From Trypanosoma brucei (Eukaryota), in the NCBI GenBank assembly GCA_000002445.1, contig CP000069.1, positions 864,001 through 928,000 of the forward strand: 64,000 bases of DNA. Reading direction: 5' to 3'. Below the pieces are notes generated by a model, which made no database searches, was not told the origin of the DNA, and saw only the letters and a list, made by a program, of their open reading frames with translations. Within the stretch, counting starts at the first letter, position 1; each line of letters begins with the position of its first letter. Below are positions 18,158 through 33,643 of the stretch, piece after piece. Position numbers and translations under genes: made by a program.

Positions 18158-18891
18158 GGTACGGTTTTGAGAGTTTTTTATTTGTATTGTTTTCATGTAC
18201 TTTATCTTTTGTTTACGGTTTCTCGTGTCCTCGTGCAATGACGGGCTCAAAAGCCTTTTATTGCATTGGTTACGCAAAAAAAAATAATAATAATAAGTTC
18301 TTGGCGAAAACTATACTTTGGAGGATAACACGTGGAGAAAAAAAAAAGGAATATATATGGTGCGATGGGGAGAGAGCTGGGTACCTTAAATGGCGCAGTT
18401 AACTACAATTGTTACCAGTGCACTGTTTGTACTCCTTTTTAGTTCTTTTCCTTCACACATGCCAAGGTTTGTGTGATGTCATTTTTTTCGAATGCCTCAT
18501 TGCAAGCCTTTCGTATCGGACTGACGTTTGAAATACTTTTATTTTGTACCAAATTGATTTTCTTTTCGCTTGTATATTCCTCTTCTTCTGATTCTTGCTA
18601 ATATTTGTAGGTACATCACGTGAATAACAGTTTTTGATTTATGCTGTTCCATGTTGTCGTTTTTTTCCCCCTCGTCGAATCACTTAGCAACCTTTTTCAT
18701 ACCTATTCGTGTATTTGTGGGTGGGTTGGTGGATACGTGCTTCCTGTTCATTATTACTACGTATGCAAGGATTGATCGTTGTTACTACCGTTTCCCATCT
18801 CTTTATTGCGATATCACACGAACGAGAAATCTCGTTTTCCAATTTTTTCTTCTTTATTGAAATTACTGGAGGGCATCTCTGTGTTACAGCC

Positions 18892-21800
18892 ATGTCTAAG
18901 CTTTACAAGGCTCAGACAGAGATGGTGCACACATGGGAGTTTACCGCCTTTATCCGTGCAGTAGGCGAAGCCCGCTCTAAACAAGAGGAAGACGAAATCA
19001 TACAACGTGACCTCGGTAATCTCCGCAAATCTTTCGAAACCGCACACGTGGAGGACTGGCTACTGAAAGAGTACGTTGTGCGCGTGCTTTACGCTGAAAT
19101 GCTCGGGCACCCAGCCAAGTTTGCGCACATTCATTGCGTGAACCTTTCAGCAAGCCCTGACTTGCTGGTGAAGCGCACTGGTTACCTTGGAACTTGGCTC
19201 ACAATTGCACCACAGGAGGATATCATGATTCTCATAGTGTCTAATTTGCTACGCGATATGAATTCATGTAATTTTCTTCACACTGCTGCAGCATTAACTG
19301 CGGCATCGAAAGTAGTGCGGCGCGACCTCATCTGTGCGATCAAACCGGAAGTGGTGAAGTTGCTTGACCACTCAGCACCACTAGTACGGAAAAAGGCTGT
19401 GATAGCGCTGCACGCCCTCTATCGTAACACAGCCGATCTTATCGACTACAAAAACTTTTTTCTCAGGGCACTAGGTGATCCTAATCCTGCTGTTGAAGCC
19501 GCCGCACTTTCCCCATTGTTAGACATTGTCCAAACAAATCCCGAATTGTGCCGAGACCTGACAGAGACTTTCATAAAGGTTCTCGAAAAAGTCGTTAGCC
19601 GCCGGCTGTCAGGGGACTACGAGTACCAACGCGTCCCAGGGCCTTGGTTTCAAATCCAAGTTATGCGGATTCTTGCAGCCCTAGTATGTGACAGCCGTGA
19701 ACTTGCTGCAAAGTGTGAGTACGTTTTGACTGAGGTTATCACGAGAGCAGACACGGGGTCTACCATTGGATATGCAGTTGCTTGCGAAGCAATTAGCTTG
19801 ATAACTCGAATTCCGACGATTCCCTCTCTGATCGAACTTTCAGTTGAAACGACCGCAAAGATGTTTGCCACGAGGAATGTGAACTTGCGCTATACTGCTA
19901 TTCAGGCACTTTCCAACCTCGCGTGTATCAACACTGACTATCTTCGCAGACATCAGGAAGACATTTTGGAATGTTTGGGGGATGGTGACGAGATGATTCG
20001 CCGCAAAACGACGTTCCTACTCCTTTCGATGTGCAACGAGGGAAATGTGGATATTATCGTTAAAAAACTGATCAAATATTTGAATAGTCAGATCGATAAG
20101 TATGTTCTTCAAGAGCTCACTCAGAGCATCTGTAGAACGGTGGAGCGTTTCAGCATGAGAAGGCTATGGTATATTAGTACGATGAACAGACTGCTTCTTT
20201 GCGCAGCCGAGCATGTTCCATATTCCTCAATTCAAGGAATGTTGAAACTCATTGTCGAAGGCGGTGAATCTGGGGACGAAGCGTCGGATGTGGCATTTCG
20301 TTTGCGTTGTGTGGAGGATTATTTTGGACTGATTAGTTGCTCACAAAAGAAAATGCCAGATGCTTTGTGTCGTGTGGCCGCGTGGGTTGTTGGTGAGTAT
20401 GGCTTCCTTGCCACTGCGATAAATCGAAGACTGATGGTTGACGGACTGTGCGATTTGTTTGCTAGAACGGACAGCGGTGATGCACGGGATTGGATAATTA
20501 TGGCGGTGATGAAAATTGTTGCCAGTGATGGTGTGGTACCAGAGAATGTGAAGGAGCTCATAGAGCGCTTCAAGGATAGTAGGATCGCTACGACACAACA
20601 ACGCTGTTACGAATTTTCGAGGCTCACGCAAATGTTACCTTTGATGAAACGGTCGCTACCGTTGGATAGGTGTTGTGAAGAGGTCGATATCGAGGAGACA
20701 TTGAGTTTTCTCAACCCCTTCGTGCAGAAGGCGCTGCTCGGTGGTGCAAAACCTTATGAGAAGCGACCTGTTTGCCGCGAGGTTCGGATGGAGATTCCGC
20801 TCTGCATTGAAAAATATGAAACTCCTCAACTGAAAACTTCGGAAGCGAGTTTGACTTGCGAAGTGTGCGACACGGAGGCGAAACCACCGGAACTCGCAAT
20901 ACGCCCCAGCACGAGGCGATGGGGCGCTAAGACCGGTAACGCAGCTGCAATGGTTAACACGGGTTTGGCGCCGGATTCACACATGCGGGAAGTCGGTGGC
21001 GGCGAGAGGATAACCTTATCGGCTCAAGTGGCTCGCACGGGTGCGACGTTAGATGAACCTTGCGGAGTCTTTGGGCCACAATGTGACCAGTCCTTACCAG
21101 CTACCCCACCGACTTTAGGTACAAAGTGTTCTAAAAACAAAAAATTGCTGGAAGATATTTTTGACGCATCAGTTCAGCTGAAAAAATATCCCCACGTTGC
21201 GCAGCAGGTGCCAGATTTATTTGAGGCTGTCGAAGTGGAAAACAAAAAGAATCTGGCAGGAGAGAACGGCTCGGCTCTTAGCGTCCACATGGAACACGTA
21301 AGGGAAGAAAGAGCGGTGGGTATCACATTGTTTATAGTTGGCAACGTAACGGTGAATGATCTAGTAGTCAACGTACTTCCTCCGTCTAACTGCACTCTCC
21401 ATGTCACATCACATTCTGTACAATCTGCGAAGCTTACCGGAAGTACTACTATTACTATGGAGACACTGAAGGTGAATCAGTCACTCGAGGTAGTTATGCA
21501 GCTTCTTCTTACTGGATTCCCAAATGATATGCATGTGCGGGTAAAGGTAGTTTATCGACGCTCCGAACCCTTTGACATGATTGACGTTGGTAAATCAGAG
21601 TCCAAAACTGCGACCATGACGCTGCAAGTCGGTGATTTTCTTCGCCCGGCTTCGTCGATGACTACCGACACGTTCGGCGAGATGTGGCTGAAGTATATCG
21701 GGGAATACAAAACAACACTTCACGGCACTGCAGCATTAACACTTGAGTCTATTAGCCAGTTGCTGATGGAGCGGGCCTCCCTACGTGTCGTAGAAATGAT

Positions 21801-21969
21801 TGGAAATGAACTCATAGTTGCGGCTGTGCTGCCTGGAACTGATCAACTACTACTGGGCCACGTTGTCCTTGTGGATCATCATTGCGCCAACGCGACCTTT
21901 CGTGCGCAAGATAAAAGGTTAGCGGAGTTTGTAGTCCGCTCATTGGACAGCGCGATACCATTGTCGTAG
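18892..21969 (+). CDS. AP-4 adaptor complex epsilon subunit (adaptin large chain)
   Basis: The track ORF opens at 18709 through a pyrimidine-rich tract; the plausible start is ATG 18892 (MSKLYKAQTEM). N-terminus LKEYVVRVLYAEMLGHPAKFAHIHCVNL...KRTGYLGTWL matches the AP4E1 N-terminal adaptin region. C-terminus EMWLKYIGEYK...VVEMIGNELIVAAVLPG matches the AP4E1 C-terminal domain (KLWLSF...IIEIIGNEGLLACQLLP). Confidence 0.8.
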   Translation: MSKLYKAQTEMVHTWEFTAFIRAVGEARSKQEEDEIIQRDLGNLRKSFETAHVEDWLLKEYVVRVLYAEMLGHPAKFAHIHCVNLSASPDLLVKRTGYLGTWLTIAPQEDIMILIVSNLLRDMNSCNFLHTAAALTAASKVVRRDLICAIKPEVVKLLDHSAPLVRKKAVIALHALYRNTADLIDYKNFFLRALGDPNPAVEAAALSPLLDIVQTNPELCRDLTETFIKVLEKVVSRRLSGDYEYQRVPGPWFQIQVMRILAALVCDSRELAAKCEYVLTEVITRADTGSTIGYAVACEAISLITRIPTIPSLIELSVETTAKMFATRNVNLRYTAIQALSNLACINTDYLRRHQEDILECLGDGDEMIRRKTTFLLLSMCNEGNVDIIVKKLIKYLNSQIDKYVLQELTQSICRTVERFSMRRLWYISTMNRLLLCAAEHVPYSSIQGMLKLIVEGGESGDEASDVAFRLRCVEDYFGLISCSQKKMPDALCRVAAWVVGEYGFLATAINRRLMVDGLCDLFARTDSGDARDWIIMAVMKIVASDGVVPENVKELIERFKDSRIATTQQRCYEFSRLTQMLPLMKRSLPLDRCCEEVDIEETLSFLNPFVQKALLGGAKPYEKRPVCREVRMEIPLCIEKYETPQLKTSEASLTCEVCDTEAKPPELAIRPSTRRWGAKTGNAAAMVNTGLAPDSHMREVGGGERITLSAQVARTGATLDEPCGVFGPQCDQSLPATPPTLGTKCSKNKKLLEDIFDASVQLKKYPHVAQQVPDLFEAVEVENKKNLAGENGSALSVHMEHVREERAVGITLFIVGNVTVNDLVVNVLPPSNCTLHVTSHSVQSAKLTGSTTITMETLKVNQSLEVVMQLLLTGFPNDMHVRVKVVYRRSEPFDMIDVGKSESKTATMTLQVGDFLRPASSMTTDTFGEMWLKYIGEYKTTLHGTAALTLESISQLLMERASLRVVEMIGNELIVAAVLPGTDQLLLGHVVLVDHHCANATFRAQDKRLAEFVVRSLDSAIPLS

Positions 21970-22094
21970 GAAGTGAAGAAATATAGCGAGTACATAGTGG
22001 TAAGGAGGAGTCAAGCAACGAACCTTTTCTTTTTAAATTGTATGTAGCTAACGGCTGGTATGTGTTAACCACCGCTCATAGTTTTTTCCCGTAT

Positions 22095-22115
22095 CTGTCT
22101 GTCTGTCTGTCTGTC
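22095..22115. repeat. (CTGT)5 tetranucleotide repeat abutting a start codon
   Basis: Read directly. Forms part of the pyrimidine-rich 5' region of the Pus3-like gene. Confidence 0.85.
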
Positions 22116-23492
22116 ATGAATTCAAATGTTAGAAAAGTAGGAATATTTTCTCCTGAACCGCATCATACAGATTCCGCCATACTTGTGAGTGTGAAGCAAG
22201 AGTTGATGTTGAGTGGCAACACCGAAGGAAAACCTCGATCAAAGGAGAGACAGTTTGATTTCTCCAGTTACCCTTCACGGAAGATTGCTCTGCGGTTAGC
22301 TTACCATGGTCACATATATTGCGGGTTAGTGAGACAGGCGGAGACGCCTAACACCGTAGAGGCATATTTAGTTGCTGCGCTGGAACGACTTCGATTTGTG
22401 GAGCCTTCAGGACCTAAAGATTTCTCACGTTGTGGTCGAACGGATAAGGGAGTGAGTGCGCTTGGAAATGTAGTGTCATTTACGTCGCGAGCATCCTCTT
22501 GGGCGACGGACGAACAGCAACAGCCACCGTTAGATTACTGCGAAAAACTGAATAACGTCCTCCCACCAACCATCCGTATTGTTGGATGGTCATATGTGAA
22601 CGCTGATTTTGATGCCCGTTTTTCATGCACTGGGCGAACATATCGTTATTACTTTTGTAATCGGGGACTCAATCTGGAAGCGATGCGCAAGGCTGTAGGG
22701 TACTTGAAGGGTGTGCATAACTTTCGAAACTTTTGTAAAACGGATGTTGTGAACGTGAATAACTACGAGCGCCATGTTCGTCACGCAGATATTGTAGGTA
22801 GTGATATGTTGCCCGATTTGGTATCTTACTTTGAAATCGAAGCAAACTCATTTCTATATAATCAGATACGATGCACTATGGAGGTACTCTTTCTCGTTGG
22901 TCGTTGTTTAGAGGAACCTGAAGTGGTGAAGCAACTCTTAGACTGCGGGGACCGAAAACCCGTGTATCCTCTTGCCGACGCAACACCGCTTGTGTTGTGG
23001 GAGTGTCACTTTGAAGGTGTACGATGGAACATATCTCAACGCGCGTGTCTCAATGCGGAAAGTGAGTTACTAGACATCGCAACTGCGCTTTTGATACGGT
23101 CTACGGTAGCGTTTTCCATGAGATCCCAGTTGTTTGCCTGGTATAGCGAACACACTGACGATAACGGTGAGGCAATTTTCTTTGAAGGGCAGAATCAAGG
23201 GATTTGTCCCGGGGATCAGTGGTCTGTTGTTGGTAGCGACTGGACGGATGAACGCACACACAATAGCCTTCGTGTGCGTAAGTCGGATATATTCGCTCTT
23301 TCTAAGAAAGTAAAAATGGGTTCGAAGGGGCCCTTAACGAGTAAGCCTTACACTAAGTTGCTTGACAGAGAAACTGAACGTACTTTTGAGGAAGAGGTGG
23401 AGCTTCTCAGTGCGAAGAAGCGTGCTAGATTTGAAGTCAACATGGAGAAGAAAAAGTTCCACGAGGAACATCGGTGTGGTAACCCAACTTAA
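22116..23492 (+). CDS. tRNA pseudouridine synthase, TruA/Pus3 (Deg1) family
   Basis: ATG 22116 follows a (CTGT)n/pyrimidine tract; the track start 22038 lies further upstream and was not checked. Motifs: KIALRLAYHGHIYCG, the catalytic-Asp motif CGRTDKGVSALGNVVSF (GRTDxGV), and GRTYRYY. Confidence 0.8.
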   Translation: MNSNVRKVGIFSPEPHHTDSAILVSVKQELMLSGNTEGKPRSKERQFDFSSYPSRKIALRLAYHGHIYCGLVRQAETPNTVEAYLVAALERLRFVEPSGPKDFSRCGRTDKGVSALGNVVSFTSRASSWATDEQQQPPLDYCEKLNNVLPPTIRIVGWSYVNADFDARFSCTGRTYRYYFCNRGLNLEAMRKAVGYLKGVHNFRNFCKTDVVNVNNYERHVRHADIVGSDMLPDLVSYFEIEANSFLYNQIRCTMEVLFLVGRCLEEPEVVKQLLDCGDRKPVYPLADATPLVLWECHFEGVRWNISQRACLNAESELLDIATALLIRSTVAFSMRSQLFAWYSEHTDDNGEAIFFEGQNQGICPGDQWSVVGSDWTDERTHNSLRVRKSDIFALSKKVKMGSKGPLTSKPYTKLLDRETERTFEEEVELLSAKKRARFEVNMEKKKFHEEHRCGNPT

Positions 23493-23704
23493 ACTACTCC
23501 ATCGCACTCACTTGTGCGTTCTGTTCAAATCCGTCTTGTACTTTTAAAAAGATGTTAAATCATAGTCCTTTGGGTCACTTTATCGAACTACTAGTGTCCT
23601 TTTTTTTCCCACCTACTACTACCTTTTCATCCTTTCTCCTATCATTTATATGAGTACATGTTTCCTCGCCGTTTTCTCTCTTCTCTTTTGCTTTTTGTTT
23701 GCGT

Positions 23705-26700
23705 ATGGACTCTCAAAGTGATATTCGTCACCATTGTCCTGCGATGGCCAGCGAGTGCTCCGCTTTACCTGATGCGTCACTTCTGCTGGTGCTGCTGGAC
23801 GGGCGTCTGCGTTGCGTTTCTCTGAAGGACGGCAGAGAACGTTGGTCTGCTCAGCTCCCTTGTGGTGAGATGTTTAGCTGCGGCGAGTCGGGAATTATTT
23901 CTGAAAGGAGGCAAATGCATCCGTCTCCTTCCGATTTTGCAACATGTAAGCAGTGCGAAGTCATGGGGGCGCGATATGGTAACTCCTCTACAACGGATAG
24001 GTATGTATCCGTTGTGCAAAACCCATGTGGTGGTTGTAGCGGGTTGTCCCAGCATCCCTTCTGTGCTTCGTTACCGAATAACGAGGTAGATTGCTGTCTC
24101 ATTTTATCACCACGGGAATCTTCGGACGTCGGCCGTTCCCCGTCATTTGAGTGGTACTTTTCAGGAGGGGTGAGTGGGAAAGGACGTGATAAATTATATT
24201 TTCCGGTAGATGTGTTGCTTGAGCATTTTAGTGCCTCTCGCTGTCCAGCACATGGGCTGCGGGATTTGAATCATAGAGAGAGTGTGTACATTGAGTTTGA
24301 CTTTGATAACGGTGTGGAACTTTTTCATCTCAGTGCTGAGAGGGGACTTTCGGTGCCTCGGCCTCGGAGGCCCCTGAATGATAATGTCAGCTCTGACACC
24401 GCTGTTGCAAGTGATGGGAATGATGGTCCTCAGATGCCACTTTGTTCAACTTCCCAAATTCGCATTGCTGTTCAGCGTGCGACGGATTATCGAACCCTTT
24501 TCTTTCCACCAGTCCCTCGTTACAGATCAGGCCCGTCAAAAGGAGTAGAAGACAACAGTCGCTCCCTTTTTGTAAAAAAATCAACGGTAATCATAAATAT
24601 TGTTGGCTGCCTCGAAACGAATTCACTGGAAGGAACAGGATTGGACGACACGCTACGTATTGAACAAACGCTCTCCGATAGCGGCGTTCGTGTTCATTGG
24701 CTTGCAGTTGGAGACAATAATAATGGCCCACAACCCACAGTGCCCGTTTCACCAGGTATTGTAGAATCTTCTCCTGTTGTTTCCGCATATGTTTTACATC
24801 CTCACCGATTGGCTACTGGTAATGCAGTTACTGAAGAGTATTGCGCGGGGGTTACTGATTTTGATGACGGAACTAGTTATGTTATGGCTTGCTGTCAAAT
24901 TCCTATTTTAAATTCATCTTCGGAGCCATCGAAGCATGTGTTGAGTATCCAGTCGTGCTTTCCTGAGAATTTTCGTCGGAAGCGGCTGCATGGGTTTGTC
25001 AATAGACAGTATGGAGTTTTCTTCTCGGAAAGTTTAAATGTGCCATCGAGCAGCTCAAGCAGCACAGTTTCTCCCTCGCCGCTTCCTACAGGCTCTGAGT
25101 GTGCATCCAACGATAATGAGAACATCTCTAATAAAGCGATGGGCGACGGCTTTTTTTCGTGTGAGGAATCTGGGGAGGAGGCGAACCACCCATCCCCAAA
25201 TGAAATGTCGAGCGGTGCGTTAGTGCTTGGGAAGAGTTTGCTGTCTTTCAGTGAAAGTGAAAATGTTGAGGCGAGAACACAAGAAAACTTCATGAGCGGA
25301 AAACAATCTTTCTTCGACGAGAACTTTGATGTTTTGATGATTTTGGGCAGTGGTGCCTCCGGTGTGGTGCTTCTCACCCGACACCGTGTTACTGGTGTTT
25401 TGTACGCCGTTAAGGTGTTGATTGTGAGAGATAAATTTGCGGAAACTGCTGTGATGCAAGAAGTGCGATTGCATGCTGTACTTCACAATGAGCACATCGT
25501 TCGTTATTACACCTGTTGGTCGGAGATGATCACACCAGCGCGGTTGCGCCAACTTGCCAGTGTTGGTCTTTGCAGCAAAAGGGAAGTAAGGCAAACATTT
25601 AGGGCTTTGGAAGCCAATTGTGTTAGTTGTGGAAGCAGCCATGAGGGTGCCGGCTGGTTGATACCCAGGCACGAGGGTCAATTAGGTAATTTGCTACTGT
25701 TGAAGTCACCTGCGGAGGATTGCGCTGGAGTTTACATGGCAGGAGATGACACGGTCGATGATGGCACAGGCTCTACAGCTGGGTCTCATACAGAACCTTC
25801 AGAGGATGGCTCTGACGACACAAGGTCAAACTCGTGTGAATCATCGTCTTCAGAACGAAGTTCATCAATTCTTGAGGGGCGTGTTGTGTTTCTTCAACTA
25901 GAGTATTATCGTACAACATTAGCGCAGCGTCTGGGGTCCCGAGGCAGCATAGACCGTTTTGAGAACATAATTATCGCACTACAGTTGTTCGCGGCAGTTC
26001 GTTATGTACACAGGTCGGGTTTCCTTCACAGGGATGTAAAACCTCCCAACATATTCATTGATTACCGTGTACAATTTTCAGGAGTAGATGGCCCAGGTGA
26101 AGAAGACAACGATGAATATGATTACGACCTGGACGAAAGTGATGGAAACGGTTGGACATGTACCAGTGTAAGAGAAGAAAAGGAAGAAAGGAAAATGTGG
26201 ACAGAGCCGGTGAATGGTGGTGGAAATGATGATGTATCTGCACCCCACCAAGCTTTCCAATCCGTTTTTGAGTTTCTGCAGTTCTACGCAACCACGCCGC
26301 CTTTGTCAACGTACCTAAAGAAGATAAAGTGTGCTCAAAACGAGGAGCAGAAGCGTCGGGCAGTGTATCTCATCGGAAAGTGGACATGCAAACGCTTCCT
26401 TCAGGTGCGACTTGGGGATTTCAGTATATCAAAATCCTTTTTGGCTCAACACGTAGAGCTGGCGTCGAACTTTGGTCGTACGGCAATGAATACGACTGGA
26501 ATTGGCTCATCATTGTATTCTAGTCCTGAGCAACTGGACGGGGAACACTGTACGAGTTCATCTGATGCGTATTCCTGTGGTATTGTGCTTGCAGAGATGT
26601 ACGTACAGCCTAAAACTGTGTCTGAGAGGCTTCATGTGTTGAAGGCTGTGCGCAACGGCGTTTTTCCAGAGAGCAGTCTTCTCAAAAGGTACCCGGAGCT

Positions 26701-26821
26701 CTGTGTGGTACAATACCTGACGCTAAAGGATCCGTCGCATCGCATGTCCCTTATGGACGCCAGCCGAGCTCTACGTCGAACGGTTTACCGTATATTGCTC
26801 TCCTTTTTTTCTGAGGTGTGA
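23705..26821 (+). CDS. eIF2-alpha-kinase-like Ser/Thr protein kinase with a long N-terminal region and kinase inserts
   Basis: The track start 23699 is a TTG; the first ATG is at 23705, and ATG 23744 is an alternative start. Glycine loop ILGSGASGVVLL, AVKVL, LHNEHIVRYYTCWSE (the eIF2AK VRYYxAWxE pattern), HRDVKPPNIFID, LGDFSISK, and GSSLYSSPEQ...SDAYSCGIVLAEM are all present. Large inserts sit after subdomain IV and between HRD and DFG. Confidence 0.6.
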   Translation: MDSQSDIRHHCPAMASECSALPDASLLLVLLDGRLRCVSLKDGRERWSAQLPCGEMFSCGESGIISERRQMHPSPSDFATCKQCEVMGARYGNSSTTDRYVSVVQNPCGGCSGLSQHPFCASLPNNEVDCCLILSPRESSDVGRSPSFEWYFSGGVSGKGRDKLYFPVDVLLEHFSASRCPAHGLRDLNHRESVYIEFDFDNGVELFHLSAERGLSVPRPRRPLNDNVSSDTAVASDGNDGPQMPLCSTSQIRIAVQRATDYRTLFFPPVPRYRSGPSKGVEDNSRSLFVKKSTVIINIVGCLETNSLEGTGLDDTLRIEQTLSDSGVRVHWLAVGDNNNGPQPTVPVSPGIVESSPVVSAYVLHPHRLATGNAVTEEYCAGVTDFDDGTSYVMACCQIPILNSSSEPSKHVLSIQSCFPENFRRKRLHGFVNRQYGVFFSESLNVPSSSSSSTVSPSPLPTGSECASNDNENISNKAMGDGFFSCEESGEEANHPSPNEMSSGALVLGKSLLSFSESENVEARTQENFMSGKQSFFDENFDVLMILGSGASGVVLLTRHRVTGVLYAVKVLIVRDKFAETAVMQEVRLHAVLHNEHIVRYYTCWSEMITPARLRQLASVGLCSKREVRQTFRALEANCVSCGSSHEGAGWLIPRHEGQLGNLLLLKSPAEDCAGVYMAGDDTVDDGTGSTAGSHTEPSEDGSDDTRSNSCESSSSERSSSILEGRVVFLQLEYYRTTLAQRLGSRGSIDRFENIIIALQLFAAVRYVHRSGFLHRDVKPPNIFIDYRVQFSGVDGPGEEDNDEYDYDLDESDGNGWTCTSVREEKEERKMWTEPVNGGGNDDVSAPHQAFQSVFEFLQFYATTPPLSTYLKKIKCAQNEEQKRRAVYLIGKWTCKRFLQVRLGDFSISKSFLAQHVELASNFGRTAMNTTGIGSSLYSSPEQLDGEHCTSSSDAYSCGIVLAEMYVQPKTVSERLHVLKAVRNGVFPESSLLKRYPELCVVQYLTLKDPSHRMSLMDASRALRRTVYRILLSFFSEV

Positions 26822-27236
26822 GAATATGTGGAATACCTCCTCTTCGTTTGCCTGTTGGTTATCCACTCTGAGAATAAGTCAAATATTTCCTTTTTGATCT
26901 CGCAAACTCCCGAAAGTACGATAATATGTGGGCGAAAGAATCTCATGTTGCTAGTTTCTGGCAGTTGTCTATATATATATATATATTATTGTTATCACAT
27001 ATTATATACATTTCGCACATACAAAAACTGTTTCTGCCCTTAATTTTTTTGCCTCTCTGTCATTGTCAGAACAGTAATATTTATATCTTTTCATTCCTTC
27101 GATTTTCTTTCATTGTTGTTGTTGTTCACACTCTCTTTTATGATGTTAATGCGTTTCGCCCGATTTGTTAAACTGAAAACATGATTTAAAAAAAGGCTCC
27201 GTGGGTGCCTTAAGATTCATCATTTGTACTGCAGCG

Positions 27237-28235
27237 ATGGCACTCATGTGGCGGTGGGTCTCTCTTGGTGGATGGTGTGGCCCGCATCTTATGCTGTCCA
27301 AATTAAACGCTCCCATCAGTGCGGTGAAGCTACCATTCGATATGGCGCGCTGCAGCTTTGATGGGCTACTGGAGTTCACCAACCGCGGATTCGACGAAGG
27401 TTTTTTTCCAGGGCCGTTGCAGTCCCGCCCCTTCACACCTGATGCGGCGTCCATTTGGTTGTTGTTCCGCGGTCAACATACTTGTATTACACATTTTAAC
27501 CTCAACAATGATAATATCGTTCAGGAGTTTGTAAATCGCTTTGATGCGTGGGAGAGAATGCTGCTTCACCCCTCGCATCCAGTAACGTTTCTCCGTACTA
27601 GCATAGCGGAGGATGCTTCTGAGGAAGTAGAGCTAATACCACAATTTCACTCCGCGCTGCAAGAGAAAAGCGCAGGCAGGTTAAAATTTCGTACAGTTAT
27701 GGTCCTCCATGACCAGGGGCCCACAACTTGTCGTGTGGCCGAGTTTACGGCCCAAGATGCAGCAGGAGCACCATGTGTTGTGTGGAACCTTGCACTAGAT
27801 AAAAGTTTACCAAGCACCGCATCACTGCTTGACCGCTGCCACGACGGATACGCGCAAATAATTAGTGAAATGAGCAGTGAGGGTGCATGGCAGTTTTCCA
27901 CGAGGTTTCTTTGCCTACCCGCACCGAAACCTTACACAAATCTTTCACGAGTGGAGGGCGTTCCTGCGCTCCGGGGTTCATGCACTGGTTTCGGTACAAC
28001 CCACGCCGCACGACTGGGTCGCTGCTTAAGTTGTGGCGCAACGGATGGACACAAAGTTGTGCAGGACGCATTCGATACGAAACGACCTTGGGAAACTGCG
28101 GAGGAGGTTGTGCTCGTTGAAAAGTTGTTTCAGGCAGGTGGTGATGAGGTTGCAGCGGTGGAGGCTGCTGCACTGGAACTGAAGCGAGGTGCCAACGAAG
28201 TGTTGTTACGTTTGCGTTACGTTACGCAATGCTGA
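27237..28235 (+). CDS. Hypothetical protein
   Basis: The first ATG is at 27237 (track GTG at 27201). 333-aa ORF on the + strand within the polycistron. No motif recognised. Confidence 0.45.
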   Translation: MALMWRWVSLGGWCGPHLMLSKLNAPISAVKLPFDMARCSFDGLLEFTNRGFDEGFFPGPLQSRPFTPDAASIWLLFRGQHTCITHFNLNNDNIVQEFVNRFDAWERMLLHPSHPVTFLRTSIAEDASEEVELIPQFHSALQEKSAGRLKFRTVMVLHDQGPTTCRVAEFTAQDAAGAPCVVWNLALDKSLPSTASLLDRCHDGYAQIISEMSSEGAWQFSTRFLCLPAPKPYTNLSRVEGVPALRGSCTGFGTTHAARLGRCLSCGATDGHKVVQDAFDTKRPWETAEEVVLVEKLFQAGGDEVAAVEAAALELKRGANEVLLRLRYVTQC

Positions 28236-28526
28236 GGTACACATACCAAGGATTGAATGTTTACTACCCCTTCCGGCGTCTTTCTTTTAACATATGGAAT
28301 ACCAATCAATGCAGTCTGAATTGTTGAAAGGAGGTAGTGAAACCTCAAATAAACTGCGTTTTTGTCTCCCCACATGTTGCTCTACCGTGTTTATCTCCCT
28401 TTCGCTTAAGAATGTAGGTTTGCATCATTTTTTCCCTTTGTTTCCTCATTTCCTCTGCCCTTTACGCTGATTTCATTGGCAAGAAAAGACGATAGTTGTG
28501 GCACATCATTAAATAACGGTGCGGTG

Positions 28527-29573
28527 ATGCTGGCTTCTCAACTGAAAACCGCGGCGGAAAAGCTCACTGAACATTGTGGAAGAGATGATTACTACTGGAC
28601 AACTGACAATGAAATGCATGCCGTGCGGCGGAGGAAGATGCTGGAAAAGTATAGCAGTGAAATCAAGAAACTCTATGGACCTGATCCACTAACATGGAAA
28701 ATCGCAACGGCGGTCGTTCTCTTTCAGATTTTCCTGGGCTCATTGGCGTCCAGCATGAGTTGGCCTGTGTTTCTGCTTACCGCTTATGCAATTGGTGGTA
28801 CGGCGACGCACAACAGCTTCTTGGCCGTCCACGAAATAACTCACAACTTGGCATTTCGTAAGGCTGTGCACAACGAGTTGTTTGCCATATTCCTTAATAT
28901 AATTGTGCCCCTACCGTACGCAATGGGATTTAAATCTCATCACAGGGATCATCACAATTACTTAGGGTGGGAGCGTGTTGACCCAGATTTACCGACGGCG
29001 CTGGAAGGGAAATTGCTTTCCAGCTACATTGGCAAATTTTTCTTTGTTACGTTCCAAGTTTTCTTCTACGCACTTCGTCCCACTCTTGTTAGAAAAATGA
29101 AAATAACGAGGATGCATGTACTAAATATTGTTGCTCAAATTATATTTGATGTTATATTTTACATGTTATTTGGACCGTGGTGTATTATTTACTTCTTCTT
29201 ATCACTCGTGTTGGGTACTGGTTGGCACCCATTGGCTGGTCACTTCCTTACTGAGCATTATATCTTTCAAGGTGACGGAAGTCAGGAAACCTTTTCTTAT
29301 TATGGTCCACTGAACTGGTTAGCTTGGAATGTCGGCCATCACGTGGAGCATCATGATTTCCCGTACGTTCCGTGGAGGCATCTGCACAAACTTCGTGAAA
29401 TTGCCCCTGAATTCTACGAAAACCTTGAGGTGACCCCCTCGTGGCCTCTTGCCTTATACGATTTCGTGTTTAAAGTTAACATGAATCCGTTCTCACGTAC
29501 CGTGCGTAGGAAAGGGTCATATCTACATCCAGATTTGCGGTCCGCTGAGGTAATCGGAAAGGAAGAAAATTAA
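28527..29573 (+). CDS. Sphingolipid delta4-desaturase (dihydroceramide desaturase, DEGS family)
   Basis: The track start 28476 is a TTG; the first ATG at 28527 gives an N-terminus whose length matches DEGS1. The Lipid_DES-like N-terminus YYWTTDNEMHAVRRRKMLEKY is followed by histidine boxes HEITHN, HHRDHHNYLG and HVEHHDFPYVPW. The product is collinear with DEGS1. Confidence 0.9.
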   Translation: MLASQLKTAAEKLTEHCGRDDYYWTTDNEMHAVRRRKMLEKYSSEIKKLYGPDPLTWKIATAVVLFQIFLGSLASSMSWPVFLLTAYAIGGTATHNSFLAVHEITHNLAFRKAVHNELFAIFLNIIVPLPYAMGFKSHHRDHHNYLGWERVDPDLPTALEGKLLSSYIGKFFFVTFQVFFYALRPTLVRKMKITRMHVLNIVAQIIFDVIFYMLFGPWCIIYFFLSLVLGTGWHPLAGHFLTEHYIFQGDGSQETFSYYGPLNWLAWNVGHHVEHHDFPYVPWRHLHKLREIAPEFYENLEVTPSWPLALYDFVFKVNMNPFSRTVRRKGSYLHPDLRSAEVIGKEEN

Positions 29574-29878: not shown

Positions 29879-31693
29879 GTGAGTATTGATGTATAGGATT
29901 GAGGTATACGTCTCTGCGAACGTGGGGAAACTGAAATGAAAAAGGGGGAAGAAGTGCTGCATACCATAAGGAAAGCAATATAGATGAAGGGTTGAACTGA
30001 AATCTGAAAAAAATGGAGAGAACATCTTGGGAGAAGACTATCGAATAAGGAGAAGAGGAAGGACACGACGCAGTTGAAGTAAATAAATTAATATACGGCA
30101 ACAGTGAAAACTAGTGTGTTAGAAGGGGGAAAAAAGAAAAAAAACGAGTAGACAATAACGTAATAAAATCTACCCGAAGGGGATGTATAATGGCGACTGT
30201 TCAAGGTAAGTAGGGTAGTGTGCCTTTCTTTTCATTTGTTGACGAATCATCCTTGTGCGGATGCGGCCCGGCGTTTTCTTTGGGGTTTGTTGTTTCCTTA
30301 CGTTGCGTTATGTTATGTTTATGTTTTGTGATTTGGTGCATAAGGAAAAGGTAATATGTGAAGTTGTGTTGCCTGAAAGAGCGCGATTGAAGAGGGAACG
30401 GAAACACGAAGAGGAAGTTGAAAAGTAAATATCGGGTTTAAATCGTCTTCAGGAATTCAACTCTTTTTTCCTTGTGTTTTTTCGTTCCCCACAAACGACG
30501 AACTTTAAACACACAGGTGAAGACGCGTAAGCATATGTATTTATATATATATGGTTTTCAAACTCTCATACTCCATGAGATGTCCCCTTATCTGGGAGCG
30601 GATTTTCATTGGGTTTGAGAATAGTGCGGAGATGTGTTGGTTCTCTCTAAATTTCCTTTGTTATTTTATTCTTTTTCTGACAATCATTTTTCTTTTTTTT
30701 TTTATCGCTGTTGTTGATGAGTGGCACGTACATGAAGAACGTATACTTGGACGTATTAGTAGATAAAGTGCTTGCTCTTTTGGCACACGCACACACACAA
30801 TTCGCGAGCAGATTTTCGAAGTAAGCGAAAACGCATCTATGACAATATTTAATGGTGGTGATGTTTTTTTTGTATATATCTTTATCAAATTGCGGTTGCA
30901 TGTTCTGTCTTTACGTTTGGAAGTTGTGACTTTCGATGGCAGGAACTTTCACTGATTGGGGGAAAAAATAAGAAAGGTGAGAAATATCACCAAATAATGT
31001 TGTAAATTGTACCTTAGTGAAAATCTGTTTGTTAGGTTCTTCTTCCCCTATTTTCATCGTTTAATGGTCATCAAAACGGTCTAATAGGGTGACGAATAAA
31101 TGAGGTGTATAAGAGAGGAAGAGGAAGAAAGAATATAATATATGATAGAAAAGGAATTGTGGAAGGAAAAGGAAGAAAGTTGATTGAAAATACCGATTTG
31201 TTTTGTCGCTCAACGTCGTCAGTTGCTGGGATGTCGGGCAGGTGCTCGTGGTGACGGGACAACCACAGATAAGAGGGAAATAACCGAGAAGAAGTGTAAG
31301 TTGATGTGTGATAGAAAATCTTGTGGTTAAGGTCACCACAACAAAGTAATAAGGAAAAAAAATAACGCGAGGCAGAGAAAGTAGAATCAACGAGAGTGTG
31401 CCCTCGTTTGCGCCATACTGTTAAATAGCGTGATTCATAAAGCACAATACCAGCTTTATAAGGAGCAGGATGCTCTCTGATTTTGGTCAAATGAATAAAT
31501 ACATTGCCGTATTTGGCTTCCTAGGCTGAAAAATAGTCTCAGGGGTTTCTTGATATGTTTTTTATTTCTCTCTACGGTCTTAATGGTTCTTATTGTGTTG
31601 TTAATTCCTTCTGACATCTTTTCAGACTTAACATGATGGATAACACATTTAAAAACATGTCGGCACACCTTCTGCTTTTCTTCTTTCTTTTTG

Positions 31694-31696
<3 letters not shown>

Positions 31697-31734
<38 letters not shown>
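31697..31734. repeat. (TA)19 microsatellite
   Basis: Perfect TA run read directly, 30 nt upstream of the ATG of the PH-PH-Kelch gene. Confidence 0.95.
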
Positions 31735-31735
<1 letters not shown>

Positions 31736-31765
31736 GAACAAAGGGAAATTGGTGATCCATTCCTG

Positions 31766-33643
31766 ATGACGCACGGTAGTAATAATGATTCTACCAAGAT
31801 TTCCTCGTGGTTGCAAAAGAAAGCGGAATGGCGCTTTGCCTGGGATCGTCGTTTCGTGGTACTTGAGGGGCTGCGGCTGTCGTATCGAATAGAAGAAAAT
31901 GGGCCCGTGAAGAAATGTGGCATTATCGCATCACTTCTTCGTCAGGTTGATTCTAACAACTCACATGCATTTCGTGTATGGCTGAAGGATGGTGAATGTT
32001 GGACTCTGCGGGCTGAGAGCAGTGAAGTACACCAAATGTGGGTTGACGAAATTACTCATGTGCTTGAGAGGGAGGCGTTGTTTGACGCAAAAAATACACG
32101 TAAAGGTATGGTACTAAAACAAGGACTGTGGACGGGCAAGTGGAGGCAGCGATTCGTGGAACTTGAGGGGTGCCGAATTGCGTATCGTGAAAAGAAAGAG
32201 GGTCCGGTACGGCACCGCTATGAAATCGTTTCAGCAGACGTTCGAAGAGGTGAGGAGAGCAAAGGGGACGAACTGTTAGTAACAACAGAAGGGGGTAATT
32301 CGTTCTGGCTCAAGTTTACAACGCCCGAGCAGTGTGAAGATTGGATGTGTACTATGTTGCGTGGGGTGAGGCGTTCCTTGCCGTGGCATTGGTTGCCGGT
32401 GATACCTCTACGGCATCCTCTCCATTGTGAAATTGGGCTACAATTTCATGCCGCTTCCAGCACTACAAGAGGTGGTTCGACTGTGTACTGCTACGGCGGA
32501 TCCCCCACCTCGGCACTCTTTCGTTATCTTCCCTCTAATGATTTATTTGTACCATTAGTTCAACGAGGAACAGTTGTGCGTAATCTCGTGTCTATCCGAC
32601 TATCTGCACAGCATCCTATTAGTTTTGTTGACGCCTTGCCGTACGAGGAAAGCGCGCATGCTAAACTCCGTCCACCTCCCTTGCTTGGTGCTGCCATGTG
32701 CACCCTCAGGGGTGTCCGTTCCTCTCCACAAGCTGCAGCATCATATACCGATGATTTTAATACAAGCGCCGGTTCTTCTGCCGTTGTGAATGGGAACTCG
32801 TGCACAAATTTGGTCGATTGCCTTGTTTTGGTAGGTGGTCGTGGAGATTCAGGTATAATACGTGATGCCACAACAGAGGTGTGGTGGTGCGTTTTCAGTG
32901 AAACACGTGGACAGTGGACTCGCTGTGCTGTGGAGAAGTCTGTGCTCCCTAATCGCACGTTCCACACACTAAGTGCCATTAGCCCAAAGGAGGCGATTCT
33001 TGTTGGTGGTGTCGATGAGAACAATCAGCCATGCTCCGAGTGCTTTTCACTGTCTTGGTCCAATGAGATCGACGATGCGGATATTTGCTTCTCTTTCCCA
33101 CCCACAATAACAGCTGTGACCCCTCTTCCATATCCCCTCGCTCTCCACGCAGCGGTGGTAATGAAGGATGGTTCGCTGCTTGTTGTGGGAGGCGGAGATA
33201 CGAGTCGAGGATCACAACCAACCTCTAGTCATTTTTTTCGTTTGGCTGACGTTGGTGGATCGTGGGAACGAGTAACATTAGAACCCCCGCTACCATCCAT
33301 GTACAATATCACCGCCGCGGCGGCTGTTATCGAAGATAAAGAATATGTGCTTGTTTTGGGGGAGCCCCGAAATGCGCGGCGAGTGCCCACGTTGTACAGG
33401 GTAATATTTAAAGACTACACAAAAGGAACTGTGGACGAGATACCATTTGTTAATGAGTTTAAGCCCCAGTGTAGCTATGGAGCGTCAATGCATATATCGG
33501 ATGGCTATTTGTATATTATTGGTGGAAGGGTGTGTGGTCCTGTGGAAAACGACTACGAATCGGGGCTGCCGATGAACGAACCGATTAGGGCAGTGATTGG
33601 CGTTAGGGAGGATCCTGCTAATTATGACGAAAGAGCAGAATAG
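31766..33643 (+). CDS. Tandem PH-domain protein with a C-terminal Kelch-type beta-propeller
   Basis: The track ORF opens inside a (TA)n tract at TTG 31691; the first ATG is at 31766. Two PH-like modules are seen (WLQKK..WRFAWDRRFVVLEG...HQMWVDEI, and LWTGKWRQRFVELEG...CEDWMCTML). Repeated LxxxGG blades follow (LVLVGGRGDSG, ILVGGVDENNQP, LLVVGGGDTSRG, YIIGGRV). Confidence 0.6.
   Translation: MTHGSNNDSTKISSWLQKKAEWRFAWDRRFVVLEGLRLSYRIEENGPVKKCGIIASLLRQVDSNNSHAFRVWLKDGECWTLRAESSEVHQMWVDEITHVLEREALFDAKNTRKGMVLKQGLWTGKWRQRFVELEGCRIAYREKKEGPVRHRYEIVSADVRRGEESKGDELLVTTEGGNSFWLKFTTPEQCEDWMCTMLRGVRRSLPWHWLPVIPLRHPLHCEIGLQFHAASSTTRGGSTVYCYGGSPTSALFRYLPSNDLFVPLVQRGTVVRNLVSIRLSAQHPISFVDALPYEESAHAKLRPPPLLGAAMCTLRGVRSSPQAAASYTDDFNTSAGSSAVVNGNSCTNLVDCLVLVGGRGDSGIIRDATTEVWWCVFSETRGQWTRCAVEKSVLPNRTFHTLSAISPKEAILVGGVDENNQPCSECFSLSWSNEIDDADICFSFPPTITAVTPLPYPLALHAAVVMKDGSLLVVGGGDTSRGSQPTSSHFFRLADVGGSWERVTLEPPLPSMYNITAAAAVIEDKEYVLVLGEPRNARRVPTLYRVIFKDYTKGTVDEIPFVNEFKPQCSYGASMHISDGYLYIIGGRVCGPVENDYESGLPMNEPIRAVIGVREDPANYDERAE

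Follow-up and report, generated by a model that had tools for sequence, protein, structure and literature searches.

At positions 23705-26821 of the 64,000-nt stretch of Trypanosoma brucei DNA analysed here (hereafter, the window), a single open frame on the + strand, closed by a stop codon at 26819-26821, encodes a protein kinase. Its product shows 100% identity over 100% coverage to XP_845419.1 (UniProt Q583N6; 1038 amino acids (aa)) of T. brucei brucei TREU927. Q583N6 is Tb927.6.2980, named PK3 by Okalang et al. 2021 (PMC8630539), the same gene was named TbK3 by Machado et al. 2018 (PMC5861040), and the published primer for quantitative PCR of TbK3 matches the window exactly at 24167-24188. 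On the full-length identity, the naming and the primer match, we therefore identify the open reading frame (ORF) as Tb927.6.2980 of T. brucei chromosome 6, which encodes PK3 (TbeIF2K3). Since the ORF limits of Tb927.6.2980 are 887705-890821 of chromosome 6 (Kolev et al. 2010, Table S1), the window is chromosome 6 864001-928000, and a window coordinate is the chromosome coordinate minus 864000.

The gene is not an uncharacterised one, as both it and its pathway are published (PMC8630539); what the initial annotation of this DNA, which was made from the letters alone, had described, correctly, is a known and experimentally studied gene. PK3 is one of the three trypanosomatid homologues of eIF2alpha kinases (PMC8630539, PMC7618733, PMC9684732). 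It is a peripheral protein of the endoplasmic reticulum (ER) that lacks a transmembrane segment and 'only associates with the ER' (PMC8630539). Its activation follows when proteins fail to be translocated or folded, as upon depletion of SEC63, SEC61, SR-alpha, BiP, calreticulin (CRT), ERO1, QSOX or mitochondrial TIMRHOM1, and is also brought about by low pH and by dithiothreitol (DTT) (PMC8630539, PMC7618733, PMC9684732). Activated PK3 is multiply phosphorylated, partly in an insert of the kinase domain, and the F771L substitution in the ATP site abolishes this phosphorylation (PMC8630539). The kinase then moves off the ER into the nucleus, and it phosphorylates TRF4 on S35 (PMC8630539), upon which TRF4 leaves the spliced leader (SL) RNA promoter, SL RNA synthesis is shut off, trans-splicing stops and the cell dies (PMC8630539, PMC7618733, PMC9684732), the outcome known as spliced leader silencing (SLS). 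The features of the gene are as follows; residues are counted from ATG 23705.

23661-23700, + strand: polypyrimidine tract upstream of the used trans-splice acceptor (from the sequence; the first AG after it is 23717-23718)
23705-26821, + strand: ORF as in GenBank/UniProt (1038 aa; XP_845419.1/Q583N6)
23717-23719, + strand: AG of the splice acceptor (23717-23718), followed by the first mRNA-body nucleotide (23719) (Kolev et al. 2010, Table S1)
23744-26821, + strand: most likely true coding sequence of PK3/TbeIF2K3, 1025 aa (SL site, orthologue N-termini, published numbering)
23774-25039, + strand: N-terminal beta-rich domain, residues ~24-445, a probable diverged sensor of the PERK/IRE1 luminal type, with CxxC (C81/C84) and CxxH (C180/H183)
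25040-25285, + strand: poorly conserved linker rich in Ser, Glu and Asn, residues 446-527 (composition, hydropathy)
25286-25528, + strand: kinase N-lobe, subdomains I-IV, residues 528-608, with GSGASG, Lys570, the alphaC Glu and VRYYTCWSE
25529-25879, + strand: insert 1, residues 609-725, the eIF2AK-typical insert between subdomains IV and V (sequence, orthologues, phosphosites of PMC8630539)
25880-26062, + strand: subdomains V-VIb, residues 726-786, with HRDVKPPNIF, in which F784 is the residue of the published F771L mutation
26063-26398, + strand: insert 2, residues 787-898, between HRD and DFG (HMMER alignments, orthologues)
26318-26362, + strand: KKIKCAQNEEQKRRA, residues 872-886, a string resembling a bipartite nuclear localization signal (NLS) (pattern scan)
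26399-26818, + strand: subdomains VII-XI, residues 899-1038, with DFS, the activation loop including T930 (published T917), SPEQ and the alphaG motif PKTVSERLHVLKAVRNGVFPES (HRI and PERK alignments)
26822-27022, + strand: 3' untranslated region up to the polyadenylation site mapped furthest 3' (Kolev et al. 2010, Table S1; transcript 3' end 891022)

As the initial annotation pointed out, the start codon is ambiguous between 23705 and 23744 from the sequence alone. No AG occurs between 23655 and 23716 on direct reading, an earlier AG (23653-23654) follows a first pyrimidine tract, and the first AG after the main tract, 23717-23718, falls within the ORF starting at 23705. Published SL mapping of the 5' end settles the start in favour of 23744. 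Table S1 of Kolev et al. 2010, a list of ORFs with a wrong annotated start whose splice-acceptor site maps inside the ORF, includes Tb927.6.2980 and gives its 5'-most SL-addition site as 887719 (window 23719), directly after AG 23717-23718. Because this site falls inside the annotated ORF, translation of PK3 most likely starts at ATG 23744, which is the first ATG 3' of it. Supplements of Nilsson 2010, a second SL-mapping dataset, do not contain this gene. The orthologues of T. grayi, T. rangeli, T. vivax and T. congolense start 8-13 residues ahead of a conserved LLLxxLDG motif, a position matched by Met14 (ATG 23744) and not by Met1 (ATG 23705). Furthermore, the published primer position, nt 424, corresponds to window 24167 when counted from ATG 23744, and the published F771, the Phe of HRDVKPPNIF (F784 in the numbering from ATG 23705), fits only the numbering from ATG 23744, as do the published phosphoserines S606, S628, S707 and S708.

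Counted from ATG 23744 the protein has 1025 aa, and from ATG 23705 it has 1038; the ORF of the initial annotation is real, but its 1040 aa resulted from a mechanical start at TTG 23699. A useful point for users of the databases is that the deposited protein begins 13 codons too early. The extension (window 23705-23743), excluded by the published SL mapping, is still carried by GenBank/UniProt (Q583N6, 1038 aa), so that residue numbers in the PK3 papers differ by 13 from the very UniProt entry that those papers cite. This is the sole discrepancy with published PK3 (ATG 23705 in GenBank/UniProt, ATG 23744 in SL mapping and the PK3 papers): the sequence is the same, and the ORF accommodates the limits of the kinase domain, the phosphosites and F771 as published.

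The catalytic core of PK3 is a bona fide eIF2AK core by sequence. All elements of a complete Ser/Thr kinase are present, namely the Gly loop (GSGASG, 548), AVK with Lys570, the alphaC Glu, HRDVKPPNIF (775-784, HRD at 775), DFS (905-907) and SPEQ (940-943), together with VRYYTCWSE (599-607), and 59% of the alignment columns of subdomains V-VIb are invariant among the orthologues. Pfam finds only Pkinase in the full protein, broken into three stretches (1e-28). With the full-length query, the best 19 distinct sequences of the PDB are HRI, PERK, GCN2 or PKR (E 6e-28 to 1.6e-12), and the next match is Wee1-like (E 2.5e-11); with the inserts spliced out, 14 of the 14 PDB matches at E<=1e-20 are HRI (125 bits), GCN2 (102) or PERK (100). 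This placement is by ranking of PDB bit scores instead of a tree, and the sequences of TbeIF2K1 and K2 stand outside the comparison. The motifs and the rankings together bear out the eIF2AK-type catalytic domain that had been proposed from VRYYxCWSE, HRDVKPPNIF and SPEQ. Judged by the same scores, the core is not specifically PERK-like (100 bits versus 125 for HRI and 102 for GCN2). The alphaG signature for docking eIF2alpha, T-x-x-E-R-x-x-x-L-x-x-[LV]-R...P, is kept, with PKTVSERLHVLKAVRNGVFPES aligned to FGTEMERAEVLTGLRTGQLPES of HRI and to PERK. At window 26417-26425, T. b. brucei, T. b. gambiense and T. equiperdum have DFS, and T. grayi, T. rangeli and T. vivax have DFG; the substitution is evidently tolerated, because the T. 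brucei kinase has been shown to be active (PMC8630539).

Two inserts interrupt this core in all full-length Trypanosoma orthologues. Insert 1, rich in Ser, Gly and acidic residues, follows directly after subdomain IV; it had been put at roughly 130 aa and recognised as typical of eIF2AKs, which holds, with limits of about 609-725 and a length of about 117 aa. The SLS-induced phosphoserines S606, S628, S707 and S708 (PMC8630539), which are S619, S641, S720 and S721 when counted from Met1, are all located in it. Insert 2, of about 111 aa, confirms the unusually long HRD-DFG insertion noticed before, and it is conserved in the Trypanosoma orthologues: in HMMER alignments ~114 residues of PK3 replace ~5 in HRI and PERK, with query residues 785/900 facing HRI 175/181 and 786/901 facing PERK 152/157. 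It consists of a variable acidic half (787-848) and a conserved basic half (849-898), as seen in T. grayi, T. rangeli and T. vivax. The conserved half contains KKIKCAQNEEQKRRA, the sole bipartite-NLS-like string that a pattern scan finds in PK3, and the basic character of this region is kept in the orthologues. By its sequence, KKIKCAQNEEQKRRA is a candidate nuclear-import signal for the published relocation of PK3 off the ER into the nucleus. An amphipathic helix that would bind membranes was also considered for the conserved half of insert 2, and dropped as it is not among the top segments of a hydrophobic-moment scan.

The N-terminal half had been described as having no recognisable domain. 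At the level of sequence this stands. Residues 1-530 have no Pfam match at E<=10 except a chance match to Arm_3, and the N-termini of all five orthologues give chance matches only at this threshold, with no match to PQQ-type models. Neither phmmer nor a profile search (hmmsearch) of the PDB with residues 1-530 returns a relevant match, and no RWD or HisRS-like domain (as in GCN2), dsRBD (as in PKR) or haem-binding region (as in HRI) was detected there with Pfam or the PDB. PK3 contains no transmembrane segment, its best 19-residue Kyte-Doolittle window reaching 1.49. The architecture of PERK, a signal peptide plus a transmembrane segment between sensor and kinase, is not found in PK3; the linker at 446-527, of which only 3% of columns are invariant, has no hydrophobic span where PERK has its transmembrane segment. 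An exhaustive phmmer search of 1.84 billion representative sequences retrieved homologues of the N-terminal domain in Trypanosoma only and none in Leishmania or bodonids, although reviews assign K1-K3 to trypanosomatids; either Leishmania K3 lacks the N-terminal domain of PK3, or the domain has diverged past the reach of phmmer.

At the level of fold and profile-profile comparison, the same region points to a domain of the PERK/IRE1 luminal type, so the earlier description did not hold there. The lead came from reading the protein: LLLVLLDGRLRCVSLKDGRERW and SSPVVSAYVL of T. brucei resemble LVFVSTLDGRLSALDADGSLNW and DSPVVAAWQL of cockroach PERK. AlphaFold2 (AF2), given an alignment of five sequences, models T. 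brucei residues 1-445 as all-beta at low confidence (predicted local distance difference test (pLDDT) 43.6, predicted template-modelling score (pTM) 0.45). When this model was compared with 350,542 chains in Foldseek, the top seven were luminal chains of PERK, IRE1 or IRE1beta (best E=4.5e-5), and fold searches with two models, both with pLDDT <50, returned PERK luminal domains first and then Ire1. Aligning the Trypanosoma profile to a 26-sequence profile of metazoan PERK luminal domains with hhalign gave a colinear local alignment of 274 columns (P=0.0012) that spans three motifs (LDGRL...W, VQRxT and SPVVSA); it was obtained only in local mode at low mact, the global mode giving a meaningless end-to-start overlap. 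The score of 33.8 compares with a maximum of 29.7 and a mean of 15.6 for 98 column-shuffled profiles, and with 13.5 for the reversed profile. Against the single cockroach PERK sequence, hhalign recovers the first motif only (E=0.0036), and a hidden Markov model of the PERK luminal domain matches its LLxxLDGxLxxxxxxxGxxxW motif at the same place in four of the five orthologues. Each of these lines is weak alone; because they combine, we take as the best reading that residues ~24-445 are probably a diverged homologue of the luminal stress-sensing domain of PERK and IRE1, as judged from predicted models and sequence profiles. With moderate confidence, the N-terminus thus probably matches a known sensor domain, an outcome that the initial annotation had named as one that would refute its view.

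Overall, PK3 is very likely best explained as the known SLS kinase, composed of an eIF2AK core and a probable PERK/IRE1-like sensor that has no membrane anchor. Given the lack of a transmembrane segment and signal peptide and the published nuclear relocation, we infer that the N-terminal domain and the kinase lie on the same, cytosolic side of the membrane. By analogy with PERK and IRE1, the N-terminal domain would oligomerise at the surface of the ER once precursors that are unfolded or non-translocated build up or once a chaperone is titrated away, and oligomerisation would lead to trans-autophosphorylation of PK3; release and nuclear import would follow, possibly via the basic KK...KRR element in insert 2. 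Non-imported precursors at the ER surface, as the trigger, would join the ER-translocon stimuli with those of mitochondrial import. We put forward tentatively, as a possibility that we hold to be somewhat doubtful, the stronger proposal that PK3 is a 'soluble PERK', an unfolded-protein sensor of the PERK/IRE1 type that is located on the ER's cytosolic face and joined directly to an eIF2AK without a membrane span.

Several observations weigh against the main interpretation, that of an SLS kinase with a PERK/IRE1-like sensor, and most of them would be expected if the N-terminal region were instead a Trypanosoma-specific beta-rich domain unrelated to PERK/IRE1, with the fold matches being artefacts of low-confidence models of long beta-hairpins. 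Both AF2 models are of low confidence (pLDDT 43.6 and 49.4, pTM 0.45 and 0.50), with no more than five sequences as input; the Foldseek template-modelling scores are low (0.22 with normalisation to the query and 0.36-0.43 with normalisation to the target); the HH probability of the alignment to the PERK profile is only 19%; and to these are added the empty Pfam searches of T. brucei and its orthologues, the empty PDB searches, and the confinement of homologues to Trypanosoma. An unrelated domain, however, would leave unexplained why seven PERK/IRE1 luminal chains independently come out on top in Foldseek, why three motifs are shared with PERK in colinear order (LLLVLLDGRLRCVSLKDGRERW/LVFVSTLDGRLSALDADGSLNW, VQRxT, SPVVSAYVL/SPVVAAWQL) and why the real hhalign score lies above that of every shuffle; the domain retrieved is, moreover, the exact partner of this kinase family in PERK. 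We therefore regard this alternative as unlikely. The cytosolic position of the domain, being deduced, also counts among the points against our interpretation, as does the activation of PK3 by depletion of luminal factors (BiP, CRT, ERO1), for which a cytosolic sensor needs an indirect explanation: the model gives no direct account of the depletion of calreticulin, ERO1 or QSOX unless translocation also backs up.

Activation by depletion of luminal factors (PMC8630539) would be natural if PK3 were a true membrane-anchored PERK with a luminal N-terminal domain, held by an unconventional anchor such as the N-terminal LLLVLL and released by processing; the hydrophobicity of that stretch (Kyte-Doolittle 1.45) and the several detergents needed to extract PK3 from membranes (PMC8630539) fit as well. 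Yet no 19-residue window is transmembrane-like (maximum 1.49), the counterpart of LLLVLLDG in the alignments is the first beta-strand of the PERK domain and not a signal sequence, and an N-terminal anchor would place the kinase in the lumen too. Tagged PK3 runs slower upon SLS induction, as expected of phosphorylation, and not faster, as expected of cleavage, and the authors themselves state that it lacks a transmembrane segment (PMC8630539); we hold an anchored PK3 to be highly improbable. The remaining alternative concerns the output, in that PK3 might mainly work as a conventional eIF2alpha kinase, arresting translation upon stress, with TRF4 phosphorylation and SL silencing secondary or indirect. 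The eIF2AK core and alphaG docking motif are kept, RNA interference against TbK3 gives partial resistance to compound I-17, the effect of which depends on eIF2alpha T169 (PMC5861040), and phosphorylation of eIF2alpha by PK3 is asserted in a 2026 preprint. On the other hand, direct phosphorylation of eIF2alpha by TbK3 was described as still to be demonstrated in 2018 (PMC5861040), a point that also tells against our own interpretation, and nuclear translocation and phosphorylation of TRF4 S35 are published. Functions towards eIF2alpha and TRF4 are not mutually exclusive, and we consider a mainly conventional role quite unlikely.

Like metazoan PERK (EIF2AK3), PK3 has an eIF2AK core with a phosphorylated insert between subdomains IV and V, is associated with the ER and is activated by secretory-pathway stress, and the predicted fold of its N-terminal domain best matches the PERK luminal domain (5sv7, 5v1d), at a sequence identity of only about 10-15%. 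Unlike PERK, it has neither signal peptide nor transmembrane segment, so that sensor and kinase would share one side of the membrane; it carries the extra 111-aa HRD-DFG insert, relocates to the nucleus and targets TRF4. It differs from IRE1 (luminal domains 2be1 of yeast and 6shc of human) in having no RNase domain and in the family of its kinase, and trypanosomes are reported to lack IRE1 (PMC7618733; 2026 preprint). The protein usually called the PERK homologue in these organisms, because of its transmembrane segment, is the paralogous eIF2AK known as TbeIF2K2, Leishmania 'PERK' or TcK2; K2 is a membrane-spanning glycoprotein of the flagellar pocket, endosomes or ER, whereas PK3 has no transmembrane segment. 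Among solved kinase domains, that of HRI (EIF2AK1) scores best (9rhh_A; E=6e-28 with the full-length query, 4e-35 with inserts removed) and has a very similar activation segment and alphaG; no similarity to the N-terminal haem-binding region of HRI was detected in PK3, and HRI lacks the extra HRD-DFG insert.

How PK3 senses stress, the question raised in the initial annotation, is one that the field shares: the upstream trigger is still described as unknown. In the papers searched, to mid-2026, trypanosomes are said to lack PERK/IRE1 sensors, and a sensor-like domain in PK3 is not mentioned. If the PERK/IRE1-like fold is real and on the cytosolic side, it would offer a concrete, testable model for sensing failed protein import. 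PK3 activators, suggested elsewhere as leads for trypanocidal compounds (PMC9684732, PMC8200641), would then have a defined domain at which to be aimed. If PK3 is indeed a 'soluble PERK', it would sense non-translocated secretory or mitochondrial precursors, or titration of cytosolic chaperones, and not luminal misfolding, giving one explanation for the SLS caused by import blocks at SEC63, SEC61, SR-alpha, BiP and TIMRHOM1; the fusion of a PERK-type sensor to a kinase would then be older than metazoans, and trypanosomes would have retained the sensor module.

Within the N-terminal domain, CxxC (C81/C84, window 23945-23956) and CxxH (C180/H183, 24242-24253) are conserved in five of five Trypanosoma orthologues, and C37 (23813-23815) is invariant among them; both AF2 models have low confidence around the CxxC and CxxH motifs. 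In a cytosolic protein, the sequence of the CxxC...CxxH pair would suit a zinc site or one that is redox-sensitive, which may matter given that DTT induces SLS. Two irregularities among the orthologues are probably artefacts of assembly or annotation: the T. congolense IL3000 protein is annotated as a 329-aa fragment without a kinase domain, and for T. vivax, proteins of 1054 and of 982 aa are both annotated.

The genes around PK3 are the following.

18709-21969, + strand: AP-4 epsilon adaptin
22038-23492, + strand: pseudouridine synthase
27201-28235, + strand: DUF1796 papain-like protein (peptidase)
28476-29573, + strand: sphingolipid delta4-desaturase
31691-33643, + strand: protein with PH and Kelch domains

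The AP-4 epsilon, pseudouridine synthase, DUF1796 peptidase and desaturase genes are housekeeping genes unrelated to PK3, which is what one expects of a trypanosome polycistron. In the window (1-64000), the 23 ORFs of 250 aa or more all lie on the + strand, and the cumulative GC skew climbs steadily along it, which together fits a single polycistronic transcription unit.

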